A DNA stretch of 64,000 nt from Spirochaetaceae bacterium (lineage in GTDB: Bacteria; Spirochaetota; Spirochaetia; PWKH01). The notes under the pieces were generated by a model, which saw only the letters and a program-made list of their open reading frames with translations, was not told where the DNA came from and did not search any database. The translations under genes were made by a program, and so were the position numbers. Shown here piece by piece: positions 4,296 through 43,202 of the stretch (within the stretch, counting starts at the first letter, position 1; every line of letters begins with the position of its first letter). The stretch spans positions 580-64,579 of the forward strand of contig PWKH01000084.1 of the NCBI GenBank assembly GCA_003559765.1. Direction: 5' to 3'.

Positions 4296-5707
4296 CCTTC
4301 ACTCCCTAATATTTCGAGGGAACAGAGCAGATACCGCTCGTCCTCCCGTATCGTTCTGGTATGCACCGCCGCTGCGCGGTCATAGTATCCCAGGGCCGCA
4401 CCAAGCACAGCCTGTATTCCCTTCCTGTCTTCTATCACCGGAATCATCCAGCGCTGATGCCTCGGCACCTTCCAGTCGGAAAGCAGCTTTCCCAGGGACT
4501 TGCTCCCCCCGGTTGAGACCATCACATCCCCTTCCTTTGAGGAGCGCACCAGTATCGGCGGAGAAAGTTCATGATCGATAAGCCCCAGCGTATCGGGGGT
4601 AAACCGGTCACTTTCTCTGACGCAAAGATATACCCCGTCATATAATAGCGTATCTCGGGCAGTTACAGCCTTAAGATACCCCTTTTTTTCTTTCTGGGCA
4701 ACTGTTCTGCTCCAAAAAACCCGATCTCCCTTGACTTCGATGGTGCTTTGGAACACATCAAAGACGGGAGTTCTGGATGCTGCCGATTCCTCCTGTCTGC
4801 ACCAGAGCAGAAACGCCCTGATCGAATCGAAGGGAAGCTGGCTTTCCTGCGGAGCGACAAAGCGGTTCCAGCAGGCATACAGGTGCATCATCCGCTGGTA
4901 GGCAGTCAGGGCGGTAAACCGCTTAAGGGAAAACTCCGCTGTTCCCCGGGCGCTGTCACCGGTCACCGGCAGGGAATCCTGATCATACTCCAGGGACGCT
5001 TCTGCCCATTCCATCTTCTCCCGCAGCGCCTCAACTGCCCGTCGGCAGCCGGGAAACACTGTTTCTATCTGCGGCATAAGCTCCCTCAGCTGATTTCTCC
5101 GGTAGATACCGGTCCGGTTGGTGGAATCATCACAGAAGGGAACCTTGGCGGTCTCCAGAAAATTCATCAGCCTGGACTTTGGAATACCAAGCAGGGGGCG
5201 GTAATAAGGATCCCGCTGCTCCGGAATGCCGGTAAGACCTTCGATCCCGCTTCCGCTGAACACCCGCATGATAACCGTTTCAATCTGATCGTCCAGTGTA
5301 TGGGCAGTAAGCACTGCGCCTCCGGCTGCATACTCAAGGAGCATTTCATACCGCAGCTGCCGGGCTGCCTCTTCAGTGCTCAGCCGGTGTTTCTGAGCAT
5401 GCTGATACACAGTCTGTTCGCCGAGGTCTGCGATGGTAAGAGGAATGCCGCGGCGCCGGCAGTATTCGGTAATATCGCTGATTTCCCCTTCAAGCTCGGC
5501 GGTGGAACGCAGGTGATGATTCACATAGATCGCTTCCACCCTGCGGCTGAGCTGTCCGCTTTCGGCGGCTCTGACCAGCAGCTCCAGCAGTGCGGTGGAA
5601 TCAGGCCCGCCGGAAAATGCCGCAACAAGGGCTCGGTCCGGATCCAGTGCGTATGAACTGATCCGTTCAGTTATCTGCGTGATGAGCTTCTTTTCGATTG
5701 TACTCAT
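4292..5707 (-). CDS. tilS: tRNA(Ile)-lysidine synthetase
   Basis: 471 aa with the PP-loop motif AFSGGPDSTALL near the N-terminus. Its 4-nt stop/start overlap with ftsH suggests coupling. The start overlaps the pth 3' end by 41 nt, and no alternative Met is available. Confidence 0.88.
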   Translation of the reverse strand: MSTIEKKLITQITERISSYALDPDRALVAAFSGGPDSTALLELLVRAAESGQLSRRVEAIYVNHHLRSTAELEGEISDITEYCRRRGIPLTIADLGEQTVYQHAQKHRLSTEEAARQLRYEMLLEYAAGGAVLTAHTLDDQIETVIMRVFSGSGIEGLTGIPEQRDPYYRPLLGIPKSRLMNFLETAKVPFCDDSTNRTGIYRRNQLRELMPQIETVFPGCRRAVEALREKMEWAEASLEYDQDSLPVTGDSARGTAEFSLKRFTALTAYQRMMHLYACWNRFVAPQESQLPFDSIRAFLLWCRQEESAASRTPVFDVFQSTIEVKGDRVFWSRTVAQKEKKGYLKAVTARDTLLYDGVYLCVRESDRFTPDTLGLIDHELSPPILVRSSKEGDVMVSTGGSKSLGKLLSDWKVPRHQRWMIPVIEDRKGIQAVLGAALGYYDRAAAVHTRTIREDERYLLCSLEILGSEG

Positions 5708-6257
5708 TCATTACCCTCTCAAGCGGTTCATGCATGAGTGCAAGGGCAGCCTCGCCCCCGCGGCGGATTCCCCGCTGCATCGCAGTTTCATCCTCAAAAG
5801 CTCCCAGTACATGATCCACCACCGACACCTCTTCGGCGGGTCTGCCGATACCGATATAGACCCGAAGGAAATCACTGCTGCCGATTTCCTGCTGCACAGA
5901 AGCGATACCCCGGTGGCCGGCAGTCCCTCCACCGCATCTCACCCGGACCGTCCCGGGCTGCAGATCCATGTTATCACAGATGACGACCAAGGACTCGGCG
6001 GATATACGGTAGGAACTCATCAGTTTCGGCAGAATGACGCCGGAGCGGTTCATATAGGTGAGAGGCTTTACCATCACGCAGAGTCTGTCGGAGACGGCAG
6101 TCTTTCCAATCTCATATTGACGAAAGAACGGTTTTCTGAGCCTCATCTGCAGGATCTCTGCTGCCGCATCAACAGAGAGAAACCCGACATTGTGCCGGGT
6201 TTTCTCATAGTTCGCTCCGGGATTTCCCAAGCCGACAATAAGAATTGGAGATATCAC
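5667..6257 (-). CDS. pth: Peptidyl-tRNA hydrolase
   Basis: 196 aa. The N-terminus LIVGLGNPGANYEKTRHNVGF is the canonical Pth signature. It directly abuts the rplY stop. Confidence 0.93.
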   Translation of the reverse strand: MISPILIVGLGNPGANYEKTRHNVGFLSVDAAAEILQMRLRKPFFRQYEIGKTAVSDRLCVMVKPLTYMNRSGVILPKLMSSYRISAESLVVICDNMDLQPGTVRVRCGGGTAGHRGIASVQQEIGSSDFLRVYIGIGRPAEEVSVVDHVLGAFEDETAMQRGIRRGGEAALALMHEPLERVMNEYNRKEAHHADN

Positions 6258-6899
6258 TTACTCGTCTTCTTCAGCAGCTTCTTCTTTCGCTTCTCCGATC
6301 ACTTCAGGCTCGGAAGATACTTCCTCTGCACCTTCTTCCTCTTCAACCTCAGCTCTCGGAGCAGTGATCGTCACCAGGGTATATTCCGGGTCGGTTATCA
6401 GGCGAACTCCCTCGGGAATCTCAAGGGCTTCCACATGAAGGCTTTCACCCATATCGAGATTCGAAATATCGAGGGTGAACTGCTCGGGGATATCCTTGGG
6501 AGTACATTCAACTTCAACTTCATGCAGAGTCTGTTCCAGCAGACCTCCCTCTTTGACTCCCTTCGCATCTCCTTCAAGATGTACCGGAATGTTGGTGCGC
6601 AGCAGCTTGCCCTGCTCAACTTCGTAGAAGTCCAAGTGCACCATGTAGTTTTTCAGGTGGTTCTCCTGATAATCCTTGATCAGCACATCATGCTTCTTTC
6701 TGCTGATCTTGATGGTAATAAGGGTATTCTCGGAGATATGATGAAATTTTCTGTCGAACTCTTTCGCCTCGATATATACGGGCTTGCTTTCGTTTTTTCC
6801 GTAGATAACCGCAGGGATCATGCCGTCCCTTCTGAGCTGTTTTGTCGCTCCCTTACGGAGATCCTTTCGATCATATCCCACCAGCGTTTTTTCACTCAT
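6258..6899 (-). CDS. rplY: 50S ribosomal protein L25 / general stress protein Ctc form, with an acidic C-terminal tail
   Basis: The ORF track gives 6258..7061, but its first 54 codons run through the tRNA gene. Met55 (ATG at 6899) is preceded by AAGGAG and starts MSEKTLVGYDRKDLRKGATKQLRRDGMIPAVIYG, typical of L25. Confidence 0.9.
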   Translation of the reverse strand: MSEKTLVGYDRKDLRKGATKQLRRDGMIPAVIYGKNESKPVYIEAKEFDRKFHHISENTLITIKISRKKHDVLIKDYQENHLKNYMVHLDFYEVEQGKLLRTNIPVHLEGDAKGVKEGGLLEQTLHEVEVECTPKDIPEQFTLDISNLDMGESLHVEALEIPEGVRLITDPEYTLVTITAPRAEVEEEEGAEEVSSEPEVIGEAKEEAAEEDE

Positions 6900-6962
6900 G
6901 GAAAAACTCCTTTCTGTACGTTTACAACTGCATACCTGACCCGCAGTCAGAAACAATCGGTT

Positions 6963-7168: not shown

Positions 7169-7450
7169 CTACGCTTCCCTCTCCCCCTCCGGCGAGTCCG
7201 GTGCTTTCCGATACTCCTCGAGAATCCGCTCCTGCAGTGTACCACGAAAATCAGAATTGATTGGATGGGCTACATCTTTGTATTCTCCGCTTTTTGTCTT
7301 TCTGCTCGGCATAGCGATAAATGCACCATTTTTCCCTTCGATCACTTTCACGTTATGAACAACAAATTCGTTGTCAAAGGTGACAGTCACATACGCCTTG
7401 AGCTTCCCGTCAGTATCAACCTTTCGCACGCGGATATCAGTAATTTCCAT
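7169..7450 (-). CDS. spoVG: Septation / regulatory protein SpoVG
   Basis: Start moved to [11 protein letters not shown] (ATG at 7450, with GGAGG 6 nt upstream). The sequence ITDIRVRK...[33 protein letters not shown] is the SpoVG signature. Confidence 0.9.
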
Positions 7451-7485
7451 CGGTCCCCTCCATGATTGCAGCAATAAATACGCAC

Positions 7486-24520: not shown

Positions 24521-25339
24521 ATGAAGAGACTTTTGGTTCTGATATGTGCTGCAGCCGTCTTAGGCTTGACAGCGGCACCGGTATTCTCCGGCGGAAGCCC
24601 GGAAAGCGAGACCTATACCATCGAGGTGACCGGTTCAACCTCTGTTGCTCCGCTGATGGAGCAGTTTGCCGACGCCTACCGGGACGTACGGCCGGAGGTT
24701 ACCATCAACATCAGCGGTACCGGTTCCGGTGACGGCATTACCGGAGCAAACACCGGCGTTGCCGAGCTGGGCATGTCCAGCAGAAACCTGAGATCCGCTG
24801 AAATCGGCTTCGGTCTTGATGTGCTCACCGTTGCGGTAGACGCCATTGCCGTGGTGGTCCATCCGGACAACCCCGTAAGCGATCTGACGGTTGAGCAGGT
24901 GCGAGGGATCTATACCGGGGAGATTACCAGCTGGGCTGAACTCGGCGGAGATGATTCGCAAATTTCCGTGGTCTCCCGTGAACCGGGATCGGGCACCCGG
25001 GGCGCCTTTGAAGGAGCGGTCGGATTCGTGGATGAGCTGCTCGCCGGGGCAATCGAGTTTGACGGCACCGGAGGAGTCCGGGCCGCAGTCGCCGGAAACA
25101 GCCAGGCGATAGGGTATATATCTCTGGGATCCATGAATCCGGAGGTGAAGGCTGTTTCGGTCAACGGGGTTGAGGCAAAGGCGGAGCGTGTTGTCGACGG
25201 CAGCTATGCAGTTGCAAGACCGTTTCTAATCCTCTACCGGGAAGCACAGATCGACCCGGAGACCAAGACCTTTCTCGACTGGATGGTATCAGCAGAAGGA
25301 CAGGCAATTGTCAGTCAGAATTATGTTCCCGTTCAGTAA
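24521..25339 (+). CDS. pstS: Phosphate ABC transporter substrate-binding protein
   Basis: Start moved to MKRLLVLICAAAVLGL (AGGAGG upstream, signal peptide). TGSGDGI and SREPGSGTR are typical of PstS. Confidence 0.92.
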   Translation: MKRLLVLICAAAVLGLTAAPVFSGGSPESETYTIEVTGSTSVAPLMEQFADAYRDVRPEVTINISGTGSGDGITGANTGVAELGMSSRNLRSAEIGFGLDVLTVAVDAIAVVVHPDNPVSDLTVEQVRGIYTGEITSWAELGGDDSQISVVSREPGSGTRGAFEGAVGFVDELLAGAIEFDGTGGVRAAVAGNSQAIGYISLGSMNPEVKAVSVNGVEAKAERVVDGSYAVARPFLILYREAQIDPETKTFLDWMVSAEGQAIVSQNYVPVQ

Positions 25340-33992: not shown

Positions 33993-35987
33993 ATGAAGCT
34001 TCGACTCAAGGAATTATTAAATACAGAACAGTATGAAGCCGCTTCCGTCACAGAAGGCCCGCTGCTCATCATTGCCGGGGCAGGCTCCGGCAAAACCCGG
34101 ATGATCACCTACCGGATAGCCCATCTGCTGGAGCTGGGCATCCCTCAGCGGGCGGTGCTTGCCCTGACGTTCACCAACAAGGCCGCCAAAGAGATGGAGG
34201 AGCGGGTCTCCCAGCTGCTGGGAAAGCCGGCAAAGCGGCTGACCGTCTCAACTTTTCATGCCTTCGGACTCCAGGTAATCAAACGCCACGGTCCGCTTTT
34301 GGGATTTCGCGGAAACATTACCGTGTTTGACACCCAGGATGTGCAGGCGCTGATCAAAGAATCCGCCCGGGAGGCCAAAATCTCCCTGGAGGAGCTGAAC
34401 GTCTATGACATTGCCGGACGGTTTTCTCAGATAAAAAGCGGTCTCGCCTCCCTGGACAAGGAAACTGCGGTTATCAGACAGCTCTATGAGGAATACCAGA
34501 GCCATCTGCGGACCTATCAGGCGGTTGACTTTGATGATCTCATTGCCCTTCCTCTAGAGCTGTTCAGCACCCAGCCGGAGGTGCTGGAGGAGTACCGGGA
34601 GCGCTTCCGGCATATCCTGGTGGATGAATTCCAGGACACCTCCCGGCAGCAGTATCAGCTGCTGCGCATGATCGCCCTGGGGCACCGCAACATCTGCGTG
34701 GTCGGGGATGATGATCAGTCCATCTACTCCTGGCGGGGAGCGAATTACGAGAACATCACCGACTTCGAAACAGATTTTCCCGAGGTCAGGGAAATCAAGC
34801 TGGAGCAGAACTACCGCTGCACCGGCAACATTCTCACCGCGGCGAATCACCTGATCGCCAACAATGCAAAACGGAAGGTCAAGGCGCTGTGGACCGGGGA
34901 ACAGGAGGGACTGCCCCTGTATCTGAGGACCATGGACACTGAAAGCGACGAGGCGGGGTTCATGATCTCGAAGATCCGGGAGATGAAACGGAAGAACCGC
35001 TGGAGCTACGGATCCTTCGGGATTCTGGTACGGACCAATTCCCTGATGAATTCTATAGAGCATGAACTGGTCACCGAAAATATTCCCTACAGCGTCTCCG
35101 GGGGACAGAGCTTCTTTGCCCGCAAGGAGGTCAAGGATGTCATTGCCTATCTCCGGGTGCTGGCAAACCCTCACAACGATATCGACCTGCTGCGGGTGAT
35201 CAACACCCCCAGAAGGGGTCTGGGGAAAAGCACCATCGATCATCTTCACCGCTGGGCTGAGAAACGGGGCAGCTCGCTGTATTCCGCCGCCCGGGATATG
35301 ATCTCAGTGGACGCCTCCCCGCTGACCGGCAAGGCGAAGGGGGCTCTGGAGGAGCTGCTGAGTCTGCTGGATGAGACCTCCCGGCGGATCAAACAGAGCA
35401 GGCAGATGGCCGAGGTGCTGAAAAACCTCCTGGAGGTAATCGAATACCGGCTGCATCTGCTTGCCGAACATCCGAAGAACGAACAGCTGGGCAGATGGAA
35501 GTACGACAATGTCCTGCGGTTTCTCCAGTTCTTCTCCCAGTGGGAGCAGGATCCGGATACCGGCAGCGCAACGCTGTATGACTATCTCAACCGGATATCC
35601 CTGTCTGGGAAACAGGAGCCCGATCTCCGGGAGGGACGGATCAGCCTGATGACGATCCATGCATCCAAGGGACTTGAGTTTGACTGCGTGTTCCTGCCTG
35701 CGGTGGAAGAGGAGATTATTCCCCACGGCAGGAGCATAGAGGAGGACCCGGCATCTCTGGAGGAGGAGCGCAGGCTCTTCTACGTAGCCTTGACCCGGGC
35801 CCGGCAGGCGGTGTTCATCAGCAGCTGCAGAACCAGAAAATACCTGAAGGGGCGCAGGGAGTGCCTCCCCTCCCCCTTTCTGGAGGAGATACCCAAGGAG
35901 CTGTTCAGTCACGAGGAAACCGATGCTCCAGTGTCAACAGAAGAGGCCCGGGACTTTTTCAGCGAACTGAGAAAAAAGCTCAGCTGA
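33993..35987 (+). CDS. UvrD/PcrA/Rep-family SF1 DNA helicase
   Basis: 664 aa. Walker A AGAGSGKT, motif II VDEFQDTS, and TIHASKGLEF and YVALTRAR near the C-terminus. Confidence 0.92.
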   Translation: MKLRLKELLNTEQYEAASVTEGPLLIIAGAGSGKTRMITYRIAHLLELGIPQRAVLALTFTNKAAKEMEERVSQLLGKPAKRLTVSTFHAFGLQVIKRHGPLLGFRGNITVFDTQDVQALIKESAREAKISLEELNVYDIAGRFSQIKSGLASLDKETAVIRQLYEEYQSHLRTYQAVDFDDLIALPLELFSTQPEVLEEYRERFRHILVDEFQDTSRQQYQLLRMIALGHRNICVVGDDDQSIYSWRGANYENITDFETDFPEVREIKLEQNYRCTGNILTAANHLIANNAKRKVKALWTGEQEGLPLYLRTMDTESDEAGFMISKIREMKRKNRWSYGSFGILVRTNSLMNSIEHELVTENIPYSVSGGQSFFARKEVKDVIAYLRVLANPHNDIDLLRVINTPRRGLGKSTIDHLHRWAEKRGSSLYSAARDMISVDASPLTGKAKGALEELLSLLDETSRRIKQSRQMAEVLKNLLEVIEYRLHLLAEHPKNEQLGRWKYDNVLRFLQFFSQWEQDPDTGSATLYDYLNRISLSGKQEPDLREGRISLMTIHASKGLEFDCVFLPAVEEEIIPHGRSIEEDPASLEEERRLFYVALTRARQAVFISSCRTRKYLKGRRECLPSPFLEEIPKELFSHEETDAPVSTEEARDFFSELRKKLS

Positions 35988-36037
35988 CCGCTGTCCCGGG
36001 ACTTTTCGATGATCTGAAACCGGTTTATGATACCCCC

Positions 36038-36610
36038 ATGAAACTGATCACCCCGCGGCTGGTGCTGTCGACGCTCACCTCCCGTGACGCCCGCCGGGTC
36101 CTTGCCTTTCTCCGCAGCAACCGGAGGCATCTGGAATGGAGTGAGCCGACCAGACCGCCGGACTACTATACCCTTGCAGGACAGCGGCGGATTCTGGATG
36201 ACGAAGCCCGTACTACGGCCCATATCAGGTTCTGGATTACCCTGCAGAACTCATCACCGATCATCGGATCGGTCCTCCTGGGGGGCATCGACTGGAATTA
36301 TCCGGCCTCCTGTTTCCTGGGGTACCGCATCGCCGAGGCACACACCGGAAAGGGGTATATGACCGAGGCCGCAGCAGCAGTGATCGACTACGCCTTCCGG
36401 GAGCTTAAGCTCAAGCGGATTGAGGCGAACATCATGCCGATAAACACTCCCTCCCTCAGGACCGCAAAAAAACTGGGGTTCACCCGCTTCGGGTTCTCCC
36501 GGGGCTATCTCCAGATTAACGGCAGGAGGGAGGATCATATCAGGACGGAACTGCATTCAAAGGAATGGATTTCCCGCCCTTGTCCTTTTTCCTACAAAAT
36601 TGTAGGATAA
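36038..36610 (+). CDS. GNAT-family N-acetyltransferase (RimJ/RimL-like)
   Basis: Start moved to MKLITPRLVL (Met60 of the ORF track entry). The sequence LGYRIAEAHTGKGYMTEAAAAVIDYAF and IEANIMPINTPSLRTAKKLGF is typical of RimJ/L-type GNATs. Confidence 0.8.
   Translation: MKLITPRLVLSTLTSRDARRVLAFLRSNRRHLEWSEPTRPPDYYTLAGQRRILDDEARTTAHIRFWITLQNSSPIIGSVLLGGIDWNYPASCFLGYRIAEAHTGKGYMTEAAAAVIDYAFRELKLKRIEANIMPINTPSLRTAKKLGFTRFGFSRGYLQINGRREDHIRTELHSKEWISRPCPFSYKIVG
36591..36606. promoter_or_regulatory. 16-bp palindrome CCTACAAAATTGTAGG, 8 nt upstream of the activator start codon
   Basis: Perfect 7-bp arms CCTACAA/TTGTAGG. It belongs to the same motif family as the four sites upstream of the two sigma-54 promoters. 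Confidence 0.4.
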
Positions 36611-36613
36611 GCT

Positions 36614-38140
36614 ATGGACGATTACCGGGACCTCACCATTCTGTATAATATCAGCAAAATTCTCGATGAATTTCATGACCTGGAGTCGATCATCACCCCG
36701 ATTCTGGAGAATATTTCAGACCACTTCCCGGACAGTCAGGGTGCGATCACCCTGCTGAACCGATCAACCAACAAGATTATGATCGAGTCTGCCTTCGGGC
36801 TCTCATCTTCCCAGCGCAACCGGGGAATTTATCAGGTGGGAGAAGGAATTACCGGCCGGGTGGTGAAATCGGGAAAACCGATGATCATCCCCGATGTCAG
36901 CAAGGAGAAGCATTTCACCAACAAGACCGGCCAGTTCTCCAACCGGGGGGGAGAGAAGCGCTCATTCCTCTGCGTACCGGTTAAGACGGAAAACGAGACC
37001 ATCGGGACCTTGAATATCTCCACTCTCCACCGCAATGAACAGCAGCTCCAGCGGACCCTGCAGCTGTTATCGGTGATAGCTTCGATGATTGCCCGGGCGG
37101 TTCGGCTTCGCCAGGAGCGCCGGGAGAGCACTGACCGGCTGCTTGCTGAGAACGAACGGCTGAAACGGGAGCTGAAGGACCGTTTTCAGCCGGATCGGAT
37201 CATCGGCCGCTCCCAGGTGATGCAGGAGGTCTTCGATCTCATCTGGCAGGTCTGCAGAAGTGAGGCCACCGTGCTCATTCGCGGGGACAGCGGCACCGGC
37301 AAGGAGCTGGTAGCCCAGGAGATACACTACAACAGCCTCCGGGCGGACAAGCCCTTTATAAAGGTAAACTGCGCCGCCCTGCCTGAGAGCGTGATTGAAA
37401 GTGAGCTCTTCGGTCATGAGAAGGGCGCCTTCACCGGAGCTCACACACACCGGAAGGGACGGTTTGAGCTTGCTGATGAGGGAACGCTGTTTCTCGATGA
37501 GATCGGCGAGCTTTCCGGTCAGATGCAGGTGAAGCTGCTGCGCATCCTCCAGGAGCAGGAGTTTGAACGGGTCGGAGGCACCCAGAACATTAAGGTTGAT
37601 GTGCGCATCATTGCGGCGACGAACCGAAATCTGGAGGAGGAGATGGCCGCAGGCATCTTCCGGGAGGATCTCTACTACCGGCTCAATGTGTTTCCCATCC
37701 ATCTGCCGCCGCTTCGGGAACGCAAAAGTGATATCATGCTGCTGTGCGACAGCTTTATCGATAAGTACAACAAACGCAACAACCGCAGCATCAAGCGCAT
37801 CACCAGTGCTGCAATTGATCTGTTCATGAGCTATCACTGGCCGGGAAATGTCCGGGAGCTTGAGAACTGCATTGAGCGGGCGGTGCTGTTGAGCAACGAT
37901 CAGGTGATCCATGCCTACCACCTTCCGCCGAGCCTTCAGTCTGCCGAATCCTCCAACACTCCCTCACCGAAGACCCTCAGCGAAGCGGTGGAGGAGCTGG
38001 AACGGGAACTGATCGCCGACGCCCTGAAAACTGCCCGGGGCAACCGGGCTAAGGCAGCCCGGGAACTGGGGATTACCGAGCGTATCATGGGGCTTCGGAC
38101 AGACAAATACCAGATCAATCCGGAGAAGTACAAACTCTAA
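36614..38140 (+). CDS. Sigma-54-dependent transcriptional activator, GAF-AAA+-HTH architecture (NifA-like one-component bEBP)
   Basis: 508 aa. N-terminal GAF-like region, Walker A GDSGTGKE, the sigma-54 contact loop [15 protein letters not shown], Walker [10 protein letters not shown], and a C-terminal Fis-type HTH ([15 protein letters not shown]). Confidence 0.92.
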
Positions 38141-38141
38141 T

Positions 38142-38187
38142 CCTACTGTTACGTAGGCCTCTGAATCTATTCCTACATTATTGTAAC
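38142..38187. promoter_or_regulatory. Tandem candidate enhancer (UAS) sites upstream of the amt sigma-54 promoter
   Basis: A1 is CCTACTGTTACGTAGG (38142-38157) and A2 is CCTACATTATTGTAAC (38172-38187). Their centres are 30 bp apart, and 105 and 75 bp upstream of the -24 GG. Confidence 0.5.
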
Positions 38188-38252
38188 TCAATACAGGCAT
38201 CCAGCTGTTCGCAACTTTCAGCATTTAAATAAATTATCGAAATAATCAAAAT

Positions 38253-38267
38253 TGGCACGCTATTTGC
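38253..38267 (+). promoter_or_regulatory. Sigma-54 (-24/-12) promoter of amt-glnK
   Basis: TGGCAC-GCTAT-TTGC is an exact match to TGGCAC-N5-TTGC. It lies 35 nt upstream of ATG 38303. Confidence 0.8.
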
Positions 38268-38302
38268 CAATACTCATCATTCATACTACAAGGAGCGTGC
38301 TT

Positions 38303-39613
38303 ATGAACAAACGGACTTTCTGTACCGCCGCCCTGGTTCTGCTGACCCCGGCGTCTCTTTTTTCCCAGGAGCTTGAAGGAGCGCTGCTGCTGCATCAGCA
38401 GTCCCTGGATATGATCTGGCTGCTGCTGGCAGCGGTGCTGGTGTTCTTCATGCAGGCCGGATTCACCCTGGTTGAATCCGGCCTTACCCGGGCGAAAAAC
38501 GCAGGCAACATCCTGATGAAGAATCTCATGGACTTCAGCGCAGGAGCGATCATCTACTGGGCCTTCGGGTGGGCGCTGATGTACGGCGCATCCGCATCGG
38601 GAATGATCGGAACAAGCGAGTTCTTCATCGCCGGAGCGACACCGGAGCTGTTCAGCGACTGGATGTTCCAGGTGGTGTTTGCCGCAACCGCAGCCACGAT
38701 CGTATCGGGTGCTATGGCCGAACGGACGCGGTTCTCCTCCTATCTGATCTACAGCATCTTTATCACCGGCCTGATATATCCGGTATCGGGGCACTGGATC
38801 TGGGGAGACGGATGGCTTGCCTCCCTCGGGTTTCACGATTTTGCCGGCTCCACGGTGGTGCATTCCGTCGGCGGCTGGGCGGCCCTGATGGGCGCATTAG
38901 TCCTGGGTCCCCGAATCGGCAAATATATACGGCACAACGGTGAAGTTTCCGTAAAAGCCATCCCCGGACACAACCTGCCGCTGGCGGGAGCGGGGGTGTT
39001 CATCCTCTGGTTCGGGTGGTACGGATTCAACGCCGGCTCAACCCTCAGCGGGACAGATCTGTCGGCCTCCCATATCGCTGTAACCACCACCCTGGGGGCT
39101 GCAGCCGGTGCAATCGGAGCCATGGCAGTAACCTGGAAGCGCTACGGCAAGCCGGATGTGAGCATGTCATTCAACGGCGCTCTGGCAGGACTGGTGGGGA
39201 TCACCGCAAACTGCGATGTGATCTCCCCCGCTGGTTCAATTGTCATCGGCCTTGCCGCAGGCTTTCTTGTCGTGTATTCAGTAGAATTTTTAGATAAGGT
39301 GCTCCACATTGACGATCCCGTCGGAGCTGTCTCGGTGCACGGTGTATGCGGAGTCTGGGGAACCCTCGCAGCCGGACTCTTTCATACTGAATCCGGGCTG
39401 CTCTACGGAGGAGGCGCCTCGCTTCTCGCAATTCAGGCACTCGGAGCAGCTTCAGTATTTGCATGGGTTACTGCAACCTCGGGAATTCTGTTTCTCACCA
39501 TCAAAAAGACCGTGGGACTCCGGGTTTCTCAGGAAGATGAGTTCAAAGGACTGGACATCTCGGAGCACGGCCTCGAGGCATACAGCGGATTCCAGATTTT
39601 TTCCAACATGTAA
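38303..39613 (+). CDS. amt: Ammonium transporter
   Basis: Start moved to MNKRTFCTAALVLL (AAGGAG upstream); the ORF-track Met at 38252 would overlap the promoter. It is a polytopic Amt-family protein (FFMQAGFTLVESG, DFAGSTVVHSVGG, VHGVCGVWGT). Confidence 0.93.
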   Translation: MNKRTFCTAALVLLTPASLFSQELEGALLLHQQSLDMIWLLLAAVLVFFMQAGFTLVESGLTRAKNAGNILMKNLMDFSAGAIIYWAFGWALMYGASASGMIGTSEFFIAGATPELFSDWMFQVVFAATAATIVSGAMAERTRFSSYLIYSIFITGLIYPVSGHWIWGDGWLASLGFHDFAGSTVVHSVGGWAALMGALVLGPRIGKYIRHNGEVSVKAIPGHNLPLAGAGVFILWFGWYGFNAGSTLSGTDLSASHIAVTTTLGAAAGAIGAMAVTWKRYGKPDVSMSFNGALAGLVGITANCDVISPAGSIVIGLAAGFLVVYSVEFLDKVLHIDDPVGAVSVHGVCGVWGTLAAGLFHTESGLLYGGGASLLAIQALGAASVFAWVTATSGILFLTIKKTVGLRVSQEDEFKGLDISEHGLEAYSGFQIFSNM

Positions 39614-39624
39614 GGAGGACTGCC

Positions 39625-39966
39625 ATGAAACTGATTACAGCCTACATACAGCCCGACCGGCTGAATGCGGTAAAACAGGAATTATACAAGCGGGAGGTGT
39701 ACAAAATGTCGGTGACCAATGCCCTGGGATGCGGCCAGCAGAAGGGGTATCATGAGACCTATCGGGGGGTCGACATTGAAGTGAATCTTCTGAAGAAGGT
39801 GAGAATTGAAATTGCGGTGAATGAGGATTTCGTCGAAGCTGTCCTGGAGGGCATTACTGCCGGTGCGAGGACCGGATCTATTGGAGACGGAAAAATATTC
39901 ATCGTGCCGATTGAGGAATGCATCCGCATCAGAAACGGAGATACGGGCAGAGCAGCAATCGGCTGA
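39625..39966 (+). CDS. glnK: Nitrogen regulatory protein P-II (GlnK type, amt-linked)
   Basis: 113 aa. MKLITAYIQPDRL, T-loop GQQKGYHETYRG and GDGKIFIVPIEECIRIRNG are present. Confidence 0.93.
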   Translation: MKLITAYIQPDRLNAVKQELYKREVYKMSVTNALGCGQQKGYHETYRGVDIEVNLLKKVRIEIAVNEDFVEAVLEGITAGARTGSIGDGKIFIVPIEECIRIRNGDTGRAAIG

Positions 39967-39967
39967 T

Positions 39968-40014
39968 CCTACAAAAATGTAGAAACACACTCCATCTTCA
40001 TACATTTTTGTAGG
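39968..40014. promoter_or_regulatory. Tandem candidate enhancer (UAS) sites upstream of the glnN sigma-54 promoter; they can also pair as a 14-bp hairpin after glnK
   Basis: G1 is CCTACAAAAATGTAGA (39968-39983) and G2 is CATACATTTTTGTAGG (39999-40014). Their centres are 31 bp apart, and 105 and 74 bp upstream of the -24 GG. Confidence 0.5.
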
Positions 40015-40078
40015 AAGATGGAGCAATCTTTTCTTCAGATATTCTACAATTACATGAATAACAATAACTTATATATCT

Positions 40079-40093
40079 TGGCACGGTAATTGC
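40079..40093 (+). promoter_or_regulatory. Sigma-54 (-24/-12) promoter of glnN
   Basis: TGGCAC-GGTAA-TTGC is an exact consensus match. It lies 33 nt upstream of ATG 40127. Confidence 0.8.
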
Positions 40094-40126
40094 TTACTAT
40101 TGGAAGACAAAACTTAAGGAGTTGTT

Positions 40127-42250
40127 ATGGACTATAGCAGTGAAGTACGAACTATGAAGCTTTCAGAGATGTACGGTGAGTACAGTTTCAACGACCGCAC
40201 CATGCGTGAACGCCTTCCCAACAGCGTATATCAGAAGATGAAGGAGATTCAGGACAACAAGAAGAACCTGACCCTTGAGATTGCTGAAGTGGTGGCCAAC
40301 GCCATGAAGGACTGGGCCATCGAAAAGGGGGCAACTCACTTCACTCACTGGTTCCAGCCGCTGACCGGTCTGACTGCGGAAAAGCACGACTCCTTCATCT
40401 CACCCACTCCCGACGGACGGATCCTTATGGAATTTTCAGGCAAGGAGCTGATCAAGGGGGAGCCCGATGCTTCCTCATTTCCCAGCGGGGGCCTTCGGGC
40501 CACCTTTGAAGCGAGGGGCTATACCGCCTGGGACACCTCCTCCCCGGCATTCATCCAGGATCTCAACGGCATCACCACCCTGACCATCCCCTCGGCCTTC
40601 ATCTCCTACCGCGGGGATGCCCTGGACAAGAAGACTCCCCTGCTGCGTTCCATGGAGGCGGCCAATAAGGCCACCCTCCGGGTGCTGCGCGCTCTCGGCA
40701 ACACTGCTGTGAAGCGGGTATATACGACCGTCGGACCGGAGCAGGAATACTTCCTGGTGGACAAGGCCCATTTCAGCAAACGGCCGGACCTCCAGCTGAC
40801 CGGGCGGACCGTCTTTGGAAGCATGTGCGCCAAGGGCCAGGAACTTGATGATCACTATTTCGGATCGATCAAGGAGCGGGTACTGAAGTTCATGCATGAG
40901 CTCAACCAGGAGCTGTGGCGCCTCGGGATATCTGCAAAGACCCAGCATAACGAAGTAGCACCGAACCAGTTTGAGCTTGCCACCATTTACGATACCGCTA
41001 ACCTCAGCACCGATAAGAACCAGCTGGTAATGAAGATGATCAAGAATGTGGCTGAGCGTCATGACATGGTGGCGCTGCTCCACGAAAAGCCCTTTGCAGG
41101 GGTCAACGGATCAGGAAAGCACAACAACTGGGCGCTCTCCACGGATGACGGACAGAATCTGCTGCAGCCCGGGGACAACCCCTATGAAAATGCCCAGTTC
41201 CTGCTGTTTCTCACCTCCGTCATTAAGGCTGTTGATATGTACGCGCCGCTGCTGAGACTTTCTGCGGCAAATTCCGGAAACGACCACCGTCTGGGAGCCA
41301 ACGAAGCGCCTCCGGCGATCATCTCCATTTTTCTGGGAGAGCAGCTTACGGACATCCTCGACACGCTGATCAACGGGACGAAGCACAGCAGGGCTGCCAG
41401 TGAGATTATGGATATCGGAGTAAGCGTGCTTCCGGATTTTCCCAAAGATATGACCGACCGGAACCGGACCTCCCCCTTTGCCTTCACCGGTGACAAATTT
41501 GAATTCAGAATGGTGGGTTCCTCCCAGTCCATCGCCGGACCGAATGCAATTCTCAACAGCTCCGTATCGGCAGTCCTCAACGAAGCCGCAGACCGGCTGG
41601 AGGCAAGTTCGGACACCCTGGAAGAGGTAAAAAAGATTATTATCGATTTCTATCGGGATCACCGCCGAGTAATTTTCAACGGCAACGGATACAGCGATGA
41701 TTGGGTGCAGGAAGCGAAAAAGCGGGGACTGGCTAATCTGACCTGCACGGTTGAAGCGCTTCCGGAGCTGATGCGGGAATCCAACGCCCAGATGCTCTCC
41801 AGTCTCGGAGTGTTCTCCCGGGCGGAGCTTGAAAGCAGGCTGGAAATCTACATGGAGTCATACAGCAAGCAGATCAACATTGAGGCGGGAATCATGATTG
41901 AGATGGCCCGCAGACAGATTGTCCCTGCGGTCACCTCCTATCTTGATATGCTCATCAGCTCCCTGTCCCGTCAGCGGGAACTTGACCTGCCGGTCATCCG
42001 GCAGCAGGAACATATTACCGAGCTGTCCCGGCACCTGGAGGGGCTGATTCAGTCCATGAATACCCTGGAGGAAAAACTGAAGACCGTCCAGGACATGGAG
42101 GATGATGTTATCGCCCAGGCCAGGGAATTCCGTTGGGCTATCTGCCCCATGATGGATGATCTTCGGGTGCACGGCGACGCCCTTGAGCGGCTCACCGACC
42201 GCACAAGATGGCCCTACCCTTCCTACGAAGAACTGCTCTTCGGACTGTAG
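40127..42250 (+). CDS. glnN: Glutamine synthetase type III
   Basis: 707 aa, the GSIII size class. The N-terminus (EMYGEYSFNDRTMRERLPNSVYQKM) and catalytic-core motifs (NGSGKHNNWAL, NDHRLGANEAPP) are typical of GSIII. Confidence 0.92.
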   Translation: MDYSSEVRTMKLSEMYGEYSFNDRTMRERLPNSVYQKMKEIQDNKKNLTLEIAEVVANAMKDWAIEKGATHFTHWFQPLTGLTAEKHDSFISPTPDGRILMEFSGKELIKGEPDASSFPSGGLRATFEARGYTAWDTSSPAFIQDLNGITTLTIPSAFISYRGDALDKKTPLLRSMEAANKATLRVLRALGNTAVKRVYTTVGPEQEYFLVDKAHFSKRPDLQLTGRTVFGSMCAKGQELDDHYFGSIKERVLKFMHELNQELWRLGISAKTQHNEVAPNQFELATIYDTANLSTDKNQLVMKMIKNVAERHDMVALLHEKPFAGVNGSGKHNNWALSTDDGQNLLQPGDNPYENAQFLLFLTSVIKAVDMYAPLLRLSAANSGNDHRLGANEAPPAIISIFLGEQLTDILDTLINGTKHSRAASEIMDIGVSVLPDFPKDMTDRNRTSPFAFTGDKFEFRMVGSSQSIAGPNAILNSSVSAVLNEAADRLEASSDTLEEVKKIIIDFYRDHRRVIFNGNGYSDDWVQEAKKRGLANLTCTVEALPELMRESNAQMLSSLGVFSRAELESRLEIYMESYSKQINIEAGIMIEMARRQIVPAVTSYLDMLISSLSRQRELDLPVIRQQEHITELSRHLEGLIQSMNTLEEKLKTVQDMEDDVIAQAREFRWAICPMMDDLRVHGDALERLTDRTRWPYPSYEELLFGL

Positions 42251-42257
42251 CATCGAA

Positions 42258-42286
42258 TCCCGTCGCCTTCGGCGGCGGGTTTTTTA
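42258..42286 (+). terminator. Rho-independent terminator after glnN
   Basis: CCCGTCGCC / GGCGGCGGG stem (one G-U pair) with a short loop, followed by TTTTTT (42280-42285). Confidence 0.7.
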
Positions 42287-42344
42287 TATCTCCAGTCCTT
42301 TCAGCATGCCGTTTCTGTGCTATAGTAGTCTCAGGAGTTTGCCC

Positions 42345-43202
42345 ATGATACCAAAAAAACCCTTCGGCGGCACCGGCTGCGAAAGCACCAGAGTCATCTT
42401 CGGCGCCGCTGCCCTGGCAGAAATTACCCAGAAAGAAACAGATAAAACCCTGGAGCTGCTGCAGCGCTTCGGAGTTAATCACATCGACACCGCCCGCAGT
42501 TACGGTGAAGCTGAACTGCGCCTCGGTCCGTGGATGAAGCACAGCCGGAAGGAGTTCTTCCTTGCCAGCAAGACCGCCGAGCGCACCCGGCAGGGTGCCA
42601 TGGAGGAACTGCAGCAGTCTCTGGAGCGGCTGCAGACAGACTGCCTGGACTTATGGCAGATGCACTGCCTGGTTGAGCCGGATGAGATATCTGCTGCCCT
42701 CGGCCCCGGGGGAGTAATGGAGGCAATGACTGAGGCAAAACGGCAGGGCCTGGTGAAGCATGTCGGGGTAACCGGCCACGGGCTCGGCACACCTGCTGCG
42801 CTGCTCGGAGTGCTGGAGAAGGCTGACTTTGATTCTGTGCTGTTTCCCTACAACTATGTGCTGATGAAGCAGCACTCCTACGCCGCCGACGCAATTGCCC
42901 TGCTCAATTTTTGCGGAAGAAACCGCATTGCCGTCCAGACGATCAAATCCCTGGCAAGAAATTCCGGGGAGGGAAAGTCTTACCCCTATACCACCTGGTA
43001 CGAACCGGTAGATGATCCGGCGGTGATCCGCAGTATGGTCCAGTGGGTGCTGAGCAATCCCCAGGTGTTTCTCAATTCCTCAGGGGATGTCAGGCTGCTG
43101 CCGCACATTCTGGAAGCGGCGTCACAGCCGATCGAACTGGTTACCGAAGAACAGCTGGATGAGCTGGTGCTGCAGCACCGCATTGAGCCGGTGTTTCACT
43201 GA
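42345..43202 (+). CDS. Aldo/keto reductase
   Basis: Start moved to MIPKKPFGGTGCESTRVIFG (CAGGAG upstream). GVNHIDTARSYGEAE and the overall pattern are AKR-like. Confidence 0.85.
   Translation: MIPKKPFGGTGCESTRVIFGAAALAEITQKETDKTLELLQRFGVNHIDTARSYGEAELRLGPWMKHSRKEFFLASKTAERTRQGAMEELQQSLERLQTDCLDLWQMHCLVEPDEISAALGPGGVMEAMTEAKRQGLVKHVGVTGHGLGTPAALLGVLEKADFDSVLFPYNYVLMKQHSYAADAIALLNFCGRNRIAVQTIKSLARNSGEGKSYPYTTWYEPVDDPAVIRSMVQWVLSNPQVFLNSSGDVRLLPHILEAASQPIELVTEEQLDELVLQHRIEPVFH

Follow-up and report, generated by a model that had tools for sequence, protein, structure and literature searches.

Paired palindromes before sigma-54 promoters as predicted enhancer sites of a GAF-type nitrogen activator in a spirochaete

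Which protein switches on ammonium uptake and glutamine synthesis in a spirochaete, and from which DNA sites? This question is raised by a contig of a Spirochaetaceae bacterium (PWKH01000084.1, assembly GCA_003559765.1), of which positions 580 to 64,579 of the forward strand were analysed. This whole stretch of 64,000 nt is called the window in the following. A gene for a GAF-AAA+-HTH protein is followed here by amt-glnK and glnN, and palindromic sequences stand in pairs before both targets. To our knowledge, nitrogen control is poorly known outside Proteobacteria, Firmicutes, Cyanobacteria and Actinobacteria, and no description of it for free-living spirochaetes was found in the literature.

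Palindromes and sigma-54 promoters of the window

The region between the activator gene and glnN contains the following features.

36614-38140, plus strand: activator gene; by Pfam GAF (residues 21-163), sigma-54 interaction AAA+ (196-363), AAA lid and HTH_8 (459-495)
38142-38157, no strand: A1, CCTACTGTTACGTAGG, predicted distal, weaker amt enhancer site; 0 mismatches to CCTAC-N6-GTAGG, 11.4 bits
38172-38187, no strand: A2, CCTACATTATTGTAAC, predicted proximal amt enhancer site; 2 mismatches, 18.7 bits
38253-38267, plus strand: sigma-54 promoter of amt-glnK, TGGCACGCTATTTGC, exact match; predicted transcription start near 38278-38279
38303-39613, plus strand: amt, ammonium transporter (Pfam PF00909, 1.4e-129); AAGGAG before the ATG at 38303
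39625-39966, plus strand: glnK, P-II protein (Pfam PF00543)
39968-39983, no strand: G1, CCTACAAAAATGTAGA, predicted distal glnN enhancer site; 1 mismatch, 21.2 bits, conserved
39990-40036, plus strand: hairpin with T-rich tail; stem-loop 39990-40023, 10-bp stem extension around G2
39999-40014, no strand: G2, CATACATTTTTGTAGG, predicted proximal glnN enhancer site; 1 mismatch, 21.6 bits
40079-40093, plus strand: sigma-54 promoter of glnN, TGGCACGGTAATTGC, exact match, conserved; predicted transcription start near 40104-40105
40127-42250, plus strand: glnN, type III glutamine synthetase (Pfam GSIII_N, Gln-synt_C, Gln-synt_C-ter)

The coordinates given for sites and promoters in the original prediction were all right on re-check, as were the distances of 105/75 bp (amt) and 105/74 bp (glnN) from the site centres to the GG. 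Both promoters are exact copies of TGGCAC-N5-TTGC, and the 64 kb hold no other; the shuffle mean was 0.15, and two copies were reached in 1 of 100 shuffles. The score of the glnK product lies below the NCBIfam equivalog cut-offs, thus it is a divergent P-II protein. An rpoN gene was not seen in the 64-kb window.

Five palindromes with the consensus CCTACA-WWWW-TGTAGG occur in the window, namely A1, A2, G1, G2 and a site at 36591 before the activator gene itself. A1 starts 2 nt past the stop codon of the activator gene, and G1 2 nt past that of glnK. From start to start, A1 and A2 are 30 bp apart, G1 and G2 31 bp. For scoring, a PWM was built from orthologous sites (consensus CCTACATATATGTAGG). 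The low score of A1 is due to deviation at both inner positions, despite perfect outer arms.

Chance matches have to be considered, as intergenic DNA is AT-rich here (0.69-0.75) and the motif has a W4 centre. With 2 mismatches allowed, the count for CCTAC-N6-GTAGG was not significant (22 matches in the window, 16 expected). In contrast, 5 matches with at most one mismatch were found where 0.87 were expected, and none of 100 shuffles reached 5. PWM matches of at least 15 bits numbered 4 in the window and 0.1 in shuffles, and position and spacing are kept in 18 loci. Shuffles, PWM counts and conservation thus refute a chance origin, to which we give practically no credence. The expectation of about 0.06 exact copies, calculated earlier, was arithmetically right. 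It had also been claimed that two exact and two 1-mismatch copies exist, all in regulatory positions. The copies are there (exact at 38142 and 36591, with one mismatch at 39968 and 39999), but "all" does not hold, since another match with one mismatch, at 24675, is not in a regulatory position. A further PWM match of 13.8 bits was noted at 7269, inside a 101-aa minus-strand ORF read as spoVG-like.

The positions of A1 and G1 directly past stop codons would also suit RNA hairpins, which would terminate or stabilise the activator and glnK transcripts at their 3' ends and resemble each other as members of a common hairpin type. G2 does lie within a strong hairpin (-25.4 kcal/mol, z = -5.3) with a T-rich tail, an arrangement recurring with other stem sequences in the related loci L005, L082 and L086. 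This hairpin, which a simple terminator scan of the sequence did not list, probably serves amt-glnK as intrinsic terminator, which would give G2 two roles. The 6-bp AT-rich stems of the palindromes, however, are weak alone, and folding of the A1-A2 region is at the level of shuffled sequence (z = -0.18), with no T-run there. The sequence itself is conserved (16 bits), not mere pairing ability. It is also found before the activator ATG, nifH, glnA and gltB, where no gene ends, and a terminator does not explain a fixed spacing of 30/31 bp. As a general explanation of the palindromes, RNA hairpins are therefore very improbable.

Conservation of the pairs and their neighbouring genes

The locus was compared with 18 related loci, from Spirochaetota and one Calditrichaceae, with gene calls for seven. 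Of the 18, 15 keep the gene order, with the activator followed by amt-glnK and/or glnN; in L008 glnN is divergent. A sigma-54 promoter precedes every amt and glnN gene, and a tandem pair does so in all but two cases. With the exception of L087, each of these genes has TGGCAY-N5-YTGC at 46-67 nt before its start codon. The pairs are always 30 or 31 bp apart: 30 bp in all ten orthologous amt promoters with a pair, 31 bp in eight of the nine glnN promoters having two sites of at least 15 bits. A site directly past the stop codon is likewise found in orthologous promoters. Alignment of orthologous upstream regions had been proposed as a check. Sites and pair spacing were kept across the loci, but the distance from pair to promoter, described as superimposable for the two promoters, is so in this genome and ranges from 102 to 281 bp across the related loci. 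Where both promoters are present, the mean score is about 20.8 bits for glnN sites and about 16.3 bits for amt sites. In total, 52 PWM matches of at least 15 bits were counted in 292 kb of related loci, 35 of them paired. The NifA loci of Campylobacterota gave 11 matches in 745 kb and no pair.

Furthermore, metagenomes were scanned with the tandem motif alone, and a gene was counted if it lay within 700 bp of a pair. A nitrogen gene or an activator homologue was near the pair in 37 of 80 loci. The genes recovered were amt, glnK, glnN, glnA, gltB, gdh and nifH besides activator homologues, and Pfam confirmed NifH, GlnA, GltB, GSIII and GDH adjoining pairs. In L110 the pair is followed by TGGCATGGTCTGTGC and then by nifH; thus, where nif occurs, a wider regulon may include it. 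All 17 readable activator C-termini beside pairs carry a recognition helix of the type (T/S)ER(I/Q)xG(Y/L)(K/R), with two variants at the G position. That of the window activator, within HTH_8, is TERIMGLR. The co-occurrence of activator and motif could partly come from synteny and not from recognition.

Taken as comparative evidence, these results strongly support the original prediction that the palindromes are enhancer sites of the adjoining activator: synteny, promoters and pairs agree in 18 loci, the activator's own promoter has a site, the motif-only scan leads back to the same family, and the NifA loci of Campylobacterota are without pairs. On this basis we consider it probable that the five palindromes are DNA sites of the GAF-AAA+-HTH protein of 36614-38140 and act as enhancer sites for amt-glnK and glnN.

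Another, unlinked nitrogen regulator could own these operators instead, for example a repressor blocking the enhancer region, while the adjoining activator binds elsewhere or acts from solution. The identity of the binding protein rests on sequence comparison, the DNA-binding domain of the activator is not closest to DVU1949, the protein to which the motif is assigned in Desulfovibrionales, and repressors, too, typically have sites directly past stop codons or over a -10 element. However, sigma-54 promoters require an enhancer-binding protein, and by eye the 100-280 bp before them showed no further conserved element; a consensus search found no E. coli-type IHF site. Tandem sites on the same face before -24/-12 promoters are the classic enhancer geometry. 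The motif-only scan returned this activator family with a common recognition helix at 17 loci, and in the neighbourhoods with gene calls no second regulator gene is conserved. We therefore regard an unlinked regulator as unlikely, and the adjoining activator as the preferred binding protein.

The activator, its own promoter and a possible circuit

The protein has every hallmark of a bacterial enhancer-binding protein: a Sigma54_activat domain (PF00158, 4e-75), the GAFTGA motif and Walker A (GDSGTGKE) in the translation, and HTH_8. The pairs start 102-281 bp before the GG, where dyads of such proteins lie roughly 70-300 bp upstream. A Response_reg domain was not found by Pfam, the N-terminus being a GAF domain. 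In the NCBIfam model TIGR01817 (nifA) the activator scores 550.6, with a cut-off of 528.85, and its best full-length PDB match is the Nif-specific regulatory protein 9qq6_C. For the N-terminal 189 aa the best match is Aquifex Nlh1 (4g3k_A, 2.1e-19, residues 6-175); the Nif-specific regulatory protein 8jrc matches the GAF domain more weakly (3.5e-9). A charged helical linker is seen in the translation at residues ~165-190. None of the seven loci for which genes were called has a histidine kinase gene adjoining the activator; in L082 a cut HAMP/His_kinase gene was noticed at the locus edge, about 7 kb off.

Upstream of the activator gene two further features were identified.

36580-36608, plus strand: putative sigma-70-type promoter of the activator gene; -35 TTGTCC at 36580-36585, 17-bp spacer, -10 TAGGAT at 36603-36608
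36591-36606, no strand: operator O, CCTACAAAATTGTAGG, perfect palindrome with 0 mismatches; 23.3 bits, top-scoring site of the window

Operator O fills the spacer, overlaps the -10 and ends 7 nt before the ATG. As the ATG at 36614 is only 5 nt past the -10, the mRNA is probably leaderless. Alternatively, AGGA in the right arm, present in the window and some relatives, could be the Shine-Dalgarno sequence of a leadered transcript. The promoter was not flagged by a consensus scan because its 8 of 12 matches are below the threshold of 9. The arrangement TTGNNN-17 bp-TA(G/T)(G/C)AT with the ATG 5-6 nt past the -10 recurs in L001, L003, L005, L083, L085 and L086; L006, L007 and L082 have spacers of 15-17 bp and other distances from -10 to ATG. 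A site at the equivalent position was found in 13 of 17 related loci with readable upstream sequence and is absent in several more distant activator homologues. With a single strong site over spacer and -10, negative autoregulation by occlusion is expected, and the activator probably represses its own sigma-70-type, apparently leaderless promoter, as far as can be judged from the DNA.

The following mechanism would suit these data. One dimer would bind each palindrome through the C-terminal Fis-type HTH. With about three helical turns (30-31 bp) between the sites of a pair, both dimers would lie on one face of the DNA. Once inhibition by the GAF domain is lifted under nitrogen limitation, the paired dimers could nucleate the active AAA+ ring. 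By analogy with NifA, which is under PII control, 2-oxoglutarate and P-II (GlnK) are candidate signals. [quoted passage not shown] From enhancer to promoter the DNA is AT-rich and may loop, and the ring would remodel the closed complex of the sigma-54 holoenzyme at TGGCAC-N5-TTGC, which would switch on amt-glnK and glnN. The glnN enhancer has two strong sites and that of amt one strong and one weak; thus, glnN should respond at lower activator levels. G2 may also form the apex of the glnK terminator hairpin.

The NifA-like activator is probably a general nitrogen regulator in spirochaetes, and the widespread automatic label "nif-specific activator NifA" probably misstates the role of its clade. 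More tentatively, and with somewhat more doubt than confidence, a Nlh1/NifA-like one-component activator with TACA-W4-TGTA tandem enhancers might be the master nitrogen regulator of Spirochaetota and several mostly anaerobic lineages (Calditrichota, possibly Desulfobacterota, others in metagenomes) in place of NtrBC, the proteobacterial nif-specific NifA with its everted TGT-N10-ACA being a derived, specialised form and G2 being in dual use. If so, the activator would control amt, glnK, glnN, glnA, gltB, gdh and, where present, nif, and in non-diazotrophs the name "NifA" would be wrong in thousands of annotations. The dual use of G2 as RNA terminator apex and DNA enhancer site could then couple read-through into glnN to activator occupancy. 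The circuit can be put to the test: it comprises a single activator with its 16-bit motif, two promoters as targets with predicted transcription starts, and a putative operator for autoregulation. For metagenome-assembled genomes, from spirochaetes or other groups, the motif also offers a way to annotate nitrogen regulons.

Comparison with known systems

In enteric bacteria NtrC binds as two dimers before the sigma-54 promoter of glutamine synthetase (glnAp2/glnALG), at sites separated by about three helical turns. Stronger and weaker enhancers rank its targets, and sigma-70 promoters that its sites overlap, among them the promoter of its own operon, are repressed by it. Its half-sites are about 10-11 bp apart from centre to centre. 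In paired sites, ranked enhancers, own-promoter repression and half-site geometry the predicted circuit would work alike, and the established picture of sigma-54 enhancers is not overturned. Nevertheless, NtrC has a phosphorylated receiver and the partner NtrB, whereas the window activator has a GAF sensor and no adjoining NtrB gene, and the NtrC motif TGCACC-N5-GGTGCA differs from the palindrome found here. These three differences rule out a member of the NtrC family.

With canonical NifA the activator shares the equivalog HMM and the GAF-AAA+-HTH architecture. The upstream activator sequence of NifA is TGT-N10-ACA (PMC4999443, PMC6066989). It was not found in 38141-38252 or 39967-40078, and the 8 copies across the whole window are about as many as chance gives. 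The ACA-N4-TGT triplets of the window are everted and closer together, and the canonical NifA loci of Campylobacterota differ by having no pairs. A NifA dedicated to nif is contradicted by the assimilation targets amt-glnK and glnN and by the window, in which no NifH is encoded.

In proteins of the Nlh1 type the AAA+ domains are kept as an inactive dimer by a coiled-coil signalling helix, and ligand binding releases them. A NifA-like protein of Aquifex is said, in work of Studholme and colleagues from 2000, to bind about 100 bp upstream of glnBA. For Nlh1 (NifA-like homologue 1) of Aquifex aeolicus there are two GAF structures, 4g3k and 4g3w (Batchelor et al. 2013), and its described role is to activate nitrogen assimilation, not fixation, with unknown GAF ligand (PMC9866876). 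It has the GAF-AAA+-HTH architecture in common with the window activator and the closest GAF domain, a likeness at the level of protein domains, but comes from a different phylum.

For spirochaetes, the EbpA-RpoN system of Leptospira is described (Hu et al. 2017, reviewed in PMC12655853), in which EbpA binds upstream regions of its targets. According to the review, EbpA is, like the protein studied here, a GAF-containing enhancer-binding protein outside two-component systems and activates the sigma-54-dependent amtB. Unlike it, EbpA is FhlA-like with two GAF domains, and its targets include lipoprotein genes (PMC12655853).

The closest regulon was predicted by comparative genomics for DVU1949 in Desulfovibrionales (Kazakov et al. 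2015, BMC Genomics 16:919, PMC4641369). DVU1949, too, is a one-component sigma-54 activator. Its sites, TT(T/G)ACA-W4-TGT(A/C)AA, with TTACA-W4-TGTAA as the predicted core motif, are 16-bp palindromes that have ACA-W4-TGT in common with those of the window; positions 3-6 and 11-14 agree with the window motif, and the outer bases are TT/AA instead of CC/GG. Amt-P-II, glnN (GS type III), glnA and gltB behind sigma-54 promoters are the same target set, its own operon is also among the predicted targets, and some sites are paired at 30-32 bp. The motif and wiring had originally been thought undescribed, which can no longer be maintained; with a similar motif and gene set already predicted in Desulfovibrio, the circuit appears real but not unprecedented. 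There are differences as well. The DVU1949 sites are scattered, 1-4 per promoter with various spacings, whereas a strict tandem pair is found here. The operon of DVU1949, for which a sigma-54 promoter is listed, also comprises DVU1952-DVU1950 (iorAB in four genomes), whereas the window activator adjoins its targets and has its operator on a putative promoter of the sigma-70 type. DVU1949 has TPRQMGYR as recognition helix. Among 36 D. vulgaris domains, with DVU1949 represented by its 42-aa domain only, DVU0569 was top for the window DNA-binding domain and DVU1949 was outside the six best. As DVU0569 is closest and yet has a different 22-bp motif, homology to the DVU1949 system is unproven. Thus, the computational prediction for Desulfovibrionales is extended to another phylum, and new are the strict tandem rule of 30/31 bp and the operator on the activator's own promoter.

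Genes and palindromes of the window

As originally predicted, exact copies of the sigma-54 promoter element TGGCAC-N5-TTGC are located before amt (38253-38267) and before glnN (40079-40093). These are the only two in the 64-kb window, and dinucleotide-preserving shuffles give 0.15. The genes of this region were assigned with Pfam.

Genes around the two promoters (window positions)
33993-35987, UvrD-type helicase
35861-36610, GNAT acetyltransferase
36614-38140, activator with GAF, Sigma54_activat, AAA lid and HTH_8 domains
38303-39613, ammonium transporter (amt)
39625-39966, P-II protein (glnK)
40127-42250, type III glutamine synthetase (glnN)
42156-43202, aldo-keto reductase

The translated activator, a candidate enhancer-binding protein (EBP), contains the Walker A motif GDSGTGKE and the GAFTGA loop. 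It scores narrowly above the NCBI NifA equivalog cut-off (550.6 vs 528.85 bits). Many homologues with 60-82% identity carry the automatic name "nif-specific transcriptional activator NifA", and those with a given source name are nearly all Spirochaetota, including Spirochaeta thermophila and S. cellobiosiphila. No second EBP, GlnA, GltB, NifH or GDH is encoded within the 64-kb window. The P-II protein is far under both NCBIfam P-II equivalog cut-offs (98.8 vs 181 and 92.9 vs 202), and it is shorter in the N-terminal stretch preceding the T-loop tyrosine (YHETYRG); judged from its sequence, it is a divergent, amt-linked P-II. The longest GNAT ORF overlaps the 3' end of uvrD by 127 nt (35861-35987), and the longest aldo-keto reductase ORF that of glnN by 95 nt (42156-42250). 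The Pfam domains of these ORFs start at residues 66 and 80, respectively, and the true start codons probably lie further downstream.

Palindromes of the form CCTAC-N6-GTAGG were scored by mismatches and with a position weight matrix (PWM) built from orthologous sites.

Palindromes of the window
36591-36606, own-gene site just before the activator ATG, 0 mismatches, 23.3 bits (top PWM score in the window)
38142, A1 before amt, 0 mismatches
38172, A2 before amt, 2 mismatches
39968, G1 before glnN, 1 mismatch
39999, G2 before glnN, 1 mismatch

With at most one mismatch the window holds five matches vs 0.87 expected, and no shuffle reached five. Two exact copies and two with one mismatch, all in regulatory positions, had been claimed. 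The copies were found, but a match at 24675 (one mismatch, PWM below 8 bits) lies outside regulatory positions and was taken as chance. The same was assumed for a single PWM match at 7269 (13.8 bits), inside a 101-aa minus-strand ORF (7169-7474) which, read by eye, is presumably spoVG-like. The expected spacing was borne out: A1 and A2 are separated by 30 bp, G1 and G2 by 31 bp, and the site centres lie at 105/75 and 105/74 bp relative to the GG of the -24 element.

Related loci and metagenomes

Eighteen related loci were examined. Eleven came from a genome-contig scan, namely ten Spirochaetota with 45-81% identity (L001-L007, L009, L013, L014) and one Calditrichaceae (L008); seven (L081-L087) came from look-ups of named homologues. 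The 80 matches listed in the genome-contig scan were mostly Campylobacterota NifA, which restricted the number of spirochaete genomes; the Campylobacterota loci were used as negative control.

In 15 of the 18 loci, amt-glnK and/or glnN come after the activator gene, with glnN being divergent in L008; gltB lies downstream of glnN in L082 and L086. The PWM has the consensus CCTACA-WWWW-TGTAGG and 16.1 bits of information. Matches of at least 15 bits in the related loci are nearly confined to three places: a few nt before the activator start codon, as a pair right after the activator stop and as a pair right after the glnK stop. The element TGGCAY-N5-YTGC is present at every amt and glnN gene, 46-67 nt before the start codon except in L087. 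Without exception the sites within a pair are 30 or 31 bp apart, with 30 bp at 10 of 10 amt promoters carrying a pair and 31 bp at 8 of the 9 glnN promoters in which two sites reach 15 bits. At this threshold 52 matches, 35 of them paired, were detected in the spirochaete set (292 kb), and 11 matches, none paired, in 66 loci (745 kb) of the Campylobacterota NifA control.

In contrast to the promoters and the 30/31-bp pairs, which are conserved in the 18 loci, the distance between pair and promoter is not; counted from the start of the site, it is 112/112 bp in the window and varies between 102 and 281 bp in the relatives. Thus, the architecture described as superimposable in the original prediction is real within the window, but local to its genome. 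A 112/81-82 bp layout recurs at the amt promoter of L005 and the glnN promoter of L086. The enhancer to -24 distances of the relatives cluster at 102, 112, 123/124, 146, 155-158, 169, 181 and 189 bp. An exploratory Rayleigh test with several periods tried, on loci that are not independent of each other, gave p ~0.001 at period 11.0 and was not significant at 10.0-10.3; steps of about 11 bp, hinting at helical phasing, are suggestive only. The enhancer-promoter intervals are AT-rich (0.69-0.75 AT vs 0.44 overall), and the E. coli-type IHF consensus WATCAR-N4-TTR was found in 0 of 19.

Genes immediately 5' of the activator are often nitrogen-related: L083 encodes a short protein with an asparaginase domain (6457-6951, Pfam), L005 by eye presumably the same (about 5450-5985), L082 a divergent asparagine synthase (5106-6788) and L086 an ArgZ-like protein (5711-6943). 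No clear palindrome pair belonging to these genes was seen.

Public metagenomes were scanned for TACAWWWWTGTA-N18/19-TACAWWWWTGTA without any gene information, yielding at least 80 loci. In 37 of the 80 loci listed, the activator, Amt, GlnK, GlnN, GlnA, GltB, GDH or NifH has a homologue at most 700 bp from the pair. As the original prediction required, the motif is not equally dense away from sigma-54-controlled nitrogen genes in the loci listed. Low-complexity TATACATATATGTATA-type repeats make up about two dozen of the 80 by eye, and 36 were flagged by an automatic 4-mer filter. Pfam confirmed NifH (L110), type I GlnA (L097, L136, L145, L149), GltB (L092, L136), GSIII (L092) and GDH (L093) near pairs. 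In L110, TGGCATGGTCTGTGC and nifH come after the pair, in this order. In L092, a single pair occupies the region between the divergent genes gltB and glnN, both of which have their own sigma-54 promoter. A recognition helix of the type (T/S)ER(I/Q)xG(Y/L)(K/R) was present in 17 of 17 activator C-termini next to pairs in the loci listed, with two variants at the G position; that of the window activator, TERIMGLR, is similar. No clear pattern emerged between the helix variants (GLR vs GYK) and the outer motif bases.

Tandem arrays of TTACA-W4-TGTAA type with other periods were observed in L094 (1-360, 95-bp units), L098 (1196-1241) and L144 (4676-4721), both with three copies 15 bp apart, and L150 (87-445). 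No nitrogen gene was detected beside these arrays, which may be a different element.

As far as comparative genomics can show, synteny, conserved pairs and the motif-only scan support the prediction that the palindromes serve the adjacent activator, and we regard it as quite likely that they are the enhancer of the protein encoded at 36614-38140. Activator dimers on both sites of a pair would then nucleate the AAA+ ring. In loci with both promoters, the glnN sites average ~20.8 bits vs ~16.3 bits for amt (one strong and one weak site), which suggests a ranked response.

Putative activator promoter and glnK hairpin

The own-gene site fills the 17-bp spacer between TTGTCC (36580-36585) and TAGGAT (36603-36608), its right arm overlapping the -10 hexamer. 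The sole in-frame start codon of the activator (36614) lies 5 nt past this hexamer. The layout TTGNNN-17 bp-TA(G/T)(G/C)AT with the ATG 5-6 nt on is common to L001, L003, L005, L083, L085 and L086; in L006, L007 and L082 the spacer is 15-17 bp long and the ATG lies at other distances from the -10. A Shine-Dalgarno-like sequence is absent at about half of the loci with the own-promoter layout. We infer a sigma-70-type promoter that would give a leaderless mRNA and be occluded by the activator, resulting in negative autoregulation. Three observations weigh against this reading. The proposed hexamers of the window have only 8/12 consensus matches, and a consensus promoter scan therefore did not list them; the AGGA of the right arm might serve as ribosome-binding site for a transcript begun further upstream; and the own-gene site is absent from several more distant activator homologues.

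A long hairpin (39990-40023) has G2 at its apex and a fold of -25.4 kcal/mol (z = -5.3); CAATCTTTTCTTC comes after it. Hairpins of this type right after glnK, with the proximal glnN site at the apex, were also found in L005 (9386-9440), L082 (10464-10505) and L086 (10487-10530). Their stem extensions differ in sequence and look compensatory, which points to selection for pairing. A T-rich tail follows in the window (39990-40036) and in L005, and a consensus terminator scan did not flag the glnK hairpin. Probably it is the amt-glnK terminator, doubling as a predicted enhancer site. A1/A2 were rejected as hairpin or terminator, the fold being no better than shuffles (z = -0.18).

Comparison with known systems

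At glnAp2, NtrC binds two dyads that are spaced by three turns and lie upstream of the -24/-12 promoter, with half-sites ~10 bp apart. The geometry of the predicted enhancers of the window is alike, including the AT-rich DNA between dyads and promoter; in its mode of action the system would resemble NtrC, without being one. It fails on two defining features of a nif-specific NifA; the canonical NifA site TGT-N10-ACA is absent from the upstream regions of both amt and glnN.

P-II controls NifA in diazotrophs other than A. vinelandii. The GAF domain of the activator is nearest to that of Aquifex Nlh1 (4g3k, 2e-19) and much less like that of a Nif-specific regulatory protein (8jrc, 3.5e-9). The ATPase domains of Nlh1 were reported to be kept inactive by a GAF dimer of back-to-back type and a coiled-coil helix, pending an unknown ligand (PMC9866876). 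The GAF domain of A. vinelandii NifA binds 2-oxoglutarate (PMC6490700). For the activator, 2-oxoglutarate binding and P-II control as signal route would be analogies only. Leptospira EbpA, which activates sigma-54-dependent amtB, is FhlA-like and has two GAF domains (PMC12655853), in contrast to the one of the window activator.

Motif and wiring had originally not been matched to any described system. The same core motif and targets were in fact predicted by comparative genomics for DVU1949, a one-component EBP of Desulfovibrionales (Kazakov et al. 2015, PMC4641369). Its predicted targets are amt-P-II-glnD (DVU1231-1233), glnN (DVU1258), glnA (DVU3392), gltB-type operons and its own operon. 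The listed sites, TT(T/G)ACA-W4-TGT(A/C)AA, e.g. GTTACATTTTTGTAAT and TTTACAATTATGTAAC, have the ACA-W4-TGT core in common with the window palindromes and differ in the outer bases; some are paired 30-32 bp apart, similar to the 30/31 bp of the window. No later work on DVU1949 was found in the literature. Orthology was not supported: a search with the 42-aa DNA-binding domain of DVU1949, the sole part used, gave two fragments only, and among the D. vulgaris EBPs the DNA-binding domain of the window activator scored highest with DVU0569, whose motif differs. Homology of the activator and DVU1949 is unproven. Activator homologues with 45-46% identity and the recognition helix TKRIIQYK occur in Polyangia and Deltaproteobacteria MAGs (L010-L012, 5770-5920), where amt, glnK and glnN are all missing within 6 kb. 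Each homologue has one or two palindrome-like sites at a distance of 100-230 bp upstream of its gene, resembling the autoregulated DVU1949 arrangement.

We would place the system in a class that had been predicted before, the NifA-family (Nlh1-like) one-component nitrogen regulators with a TACA-W4-TGTA enhancer, as its member from spirochaetes. New are the extension of this class to Spirochaetota and Calditrichaceae, the strict tandem spacing of 30/31 bp, the predicted operator on the activator's own, probably leaderless promoter, the site probably embedded in the glnK terminator and the metagenome-wide link of the motif to glnA, gltB, gdh and nifH.
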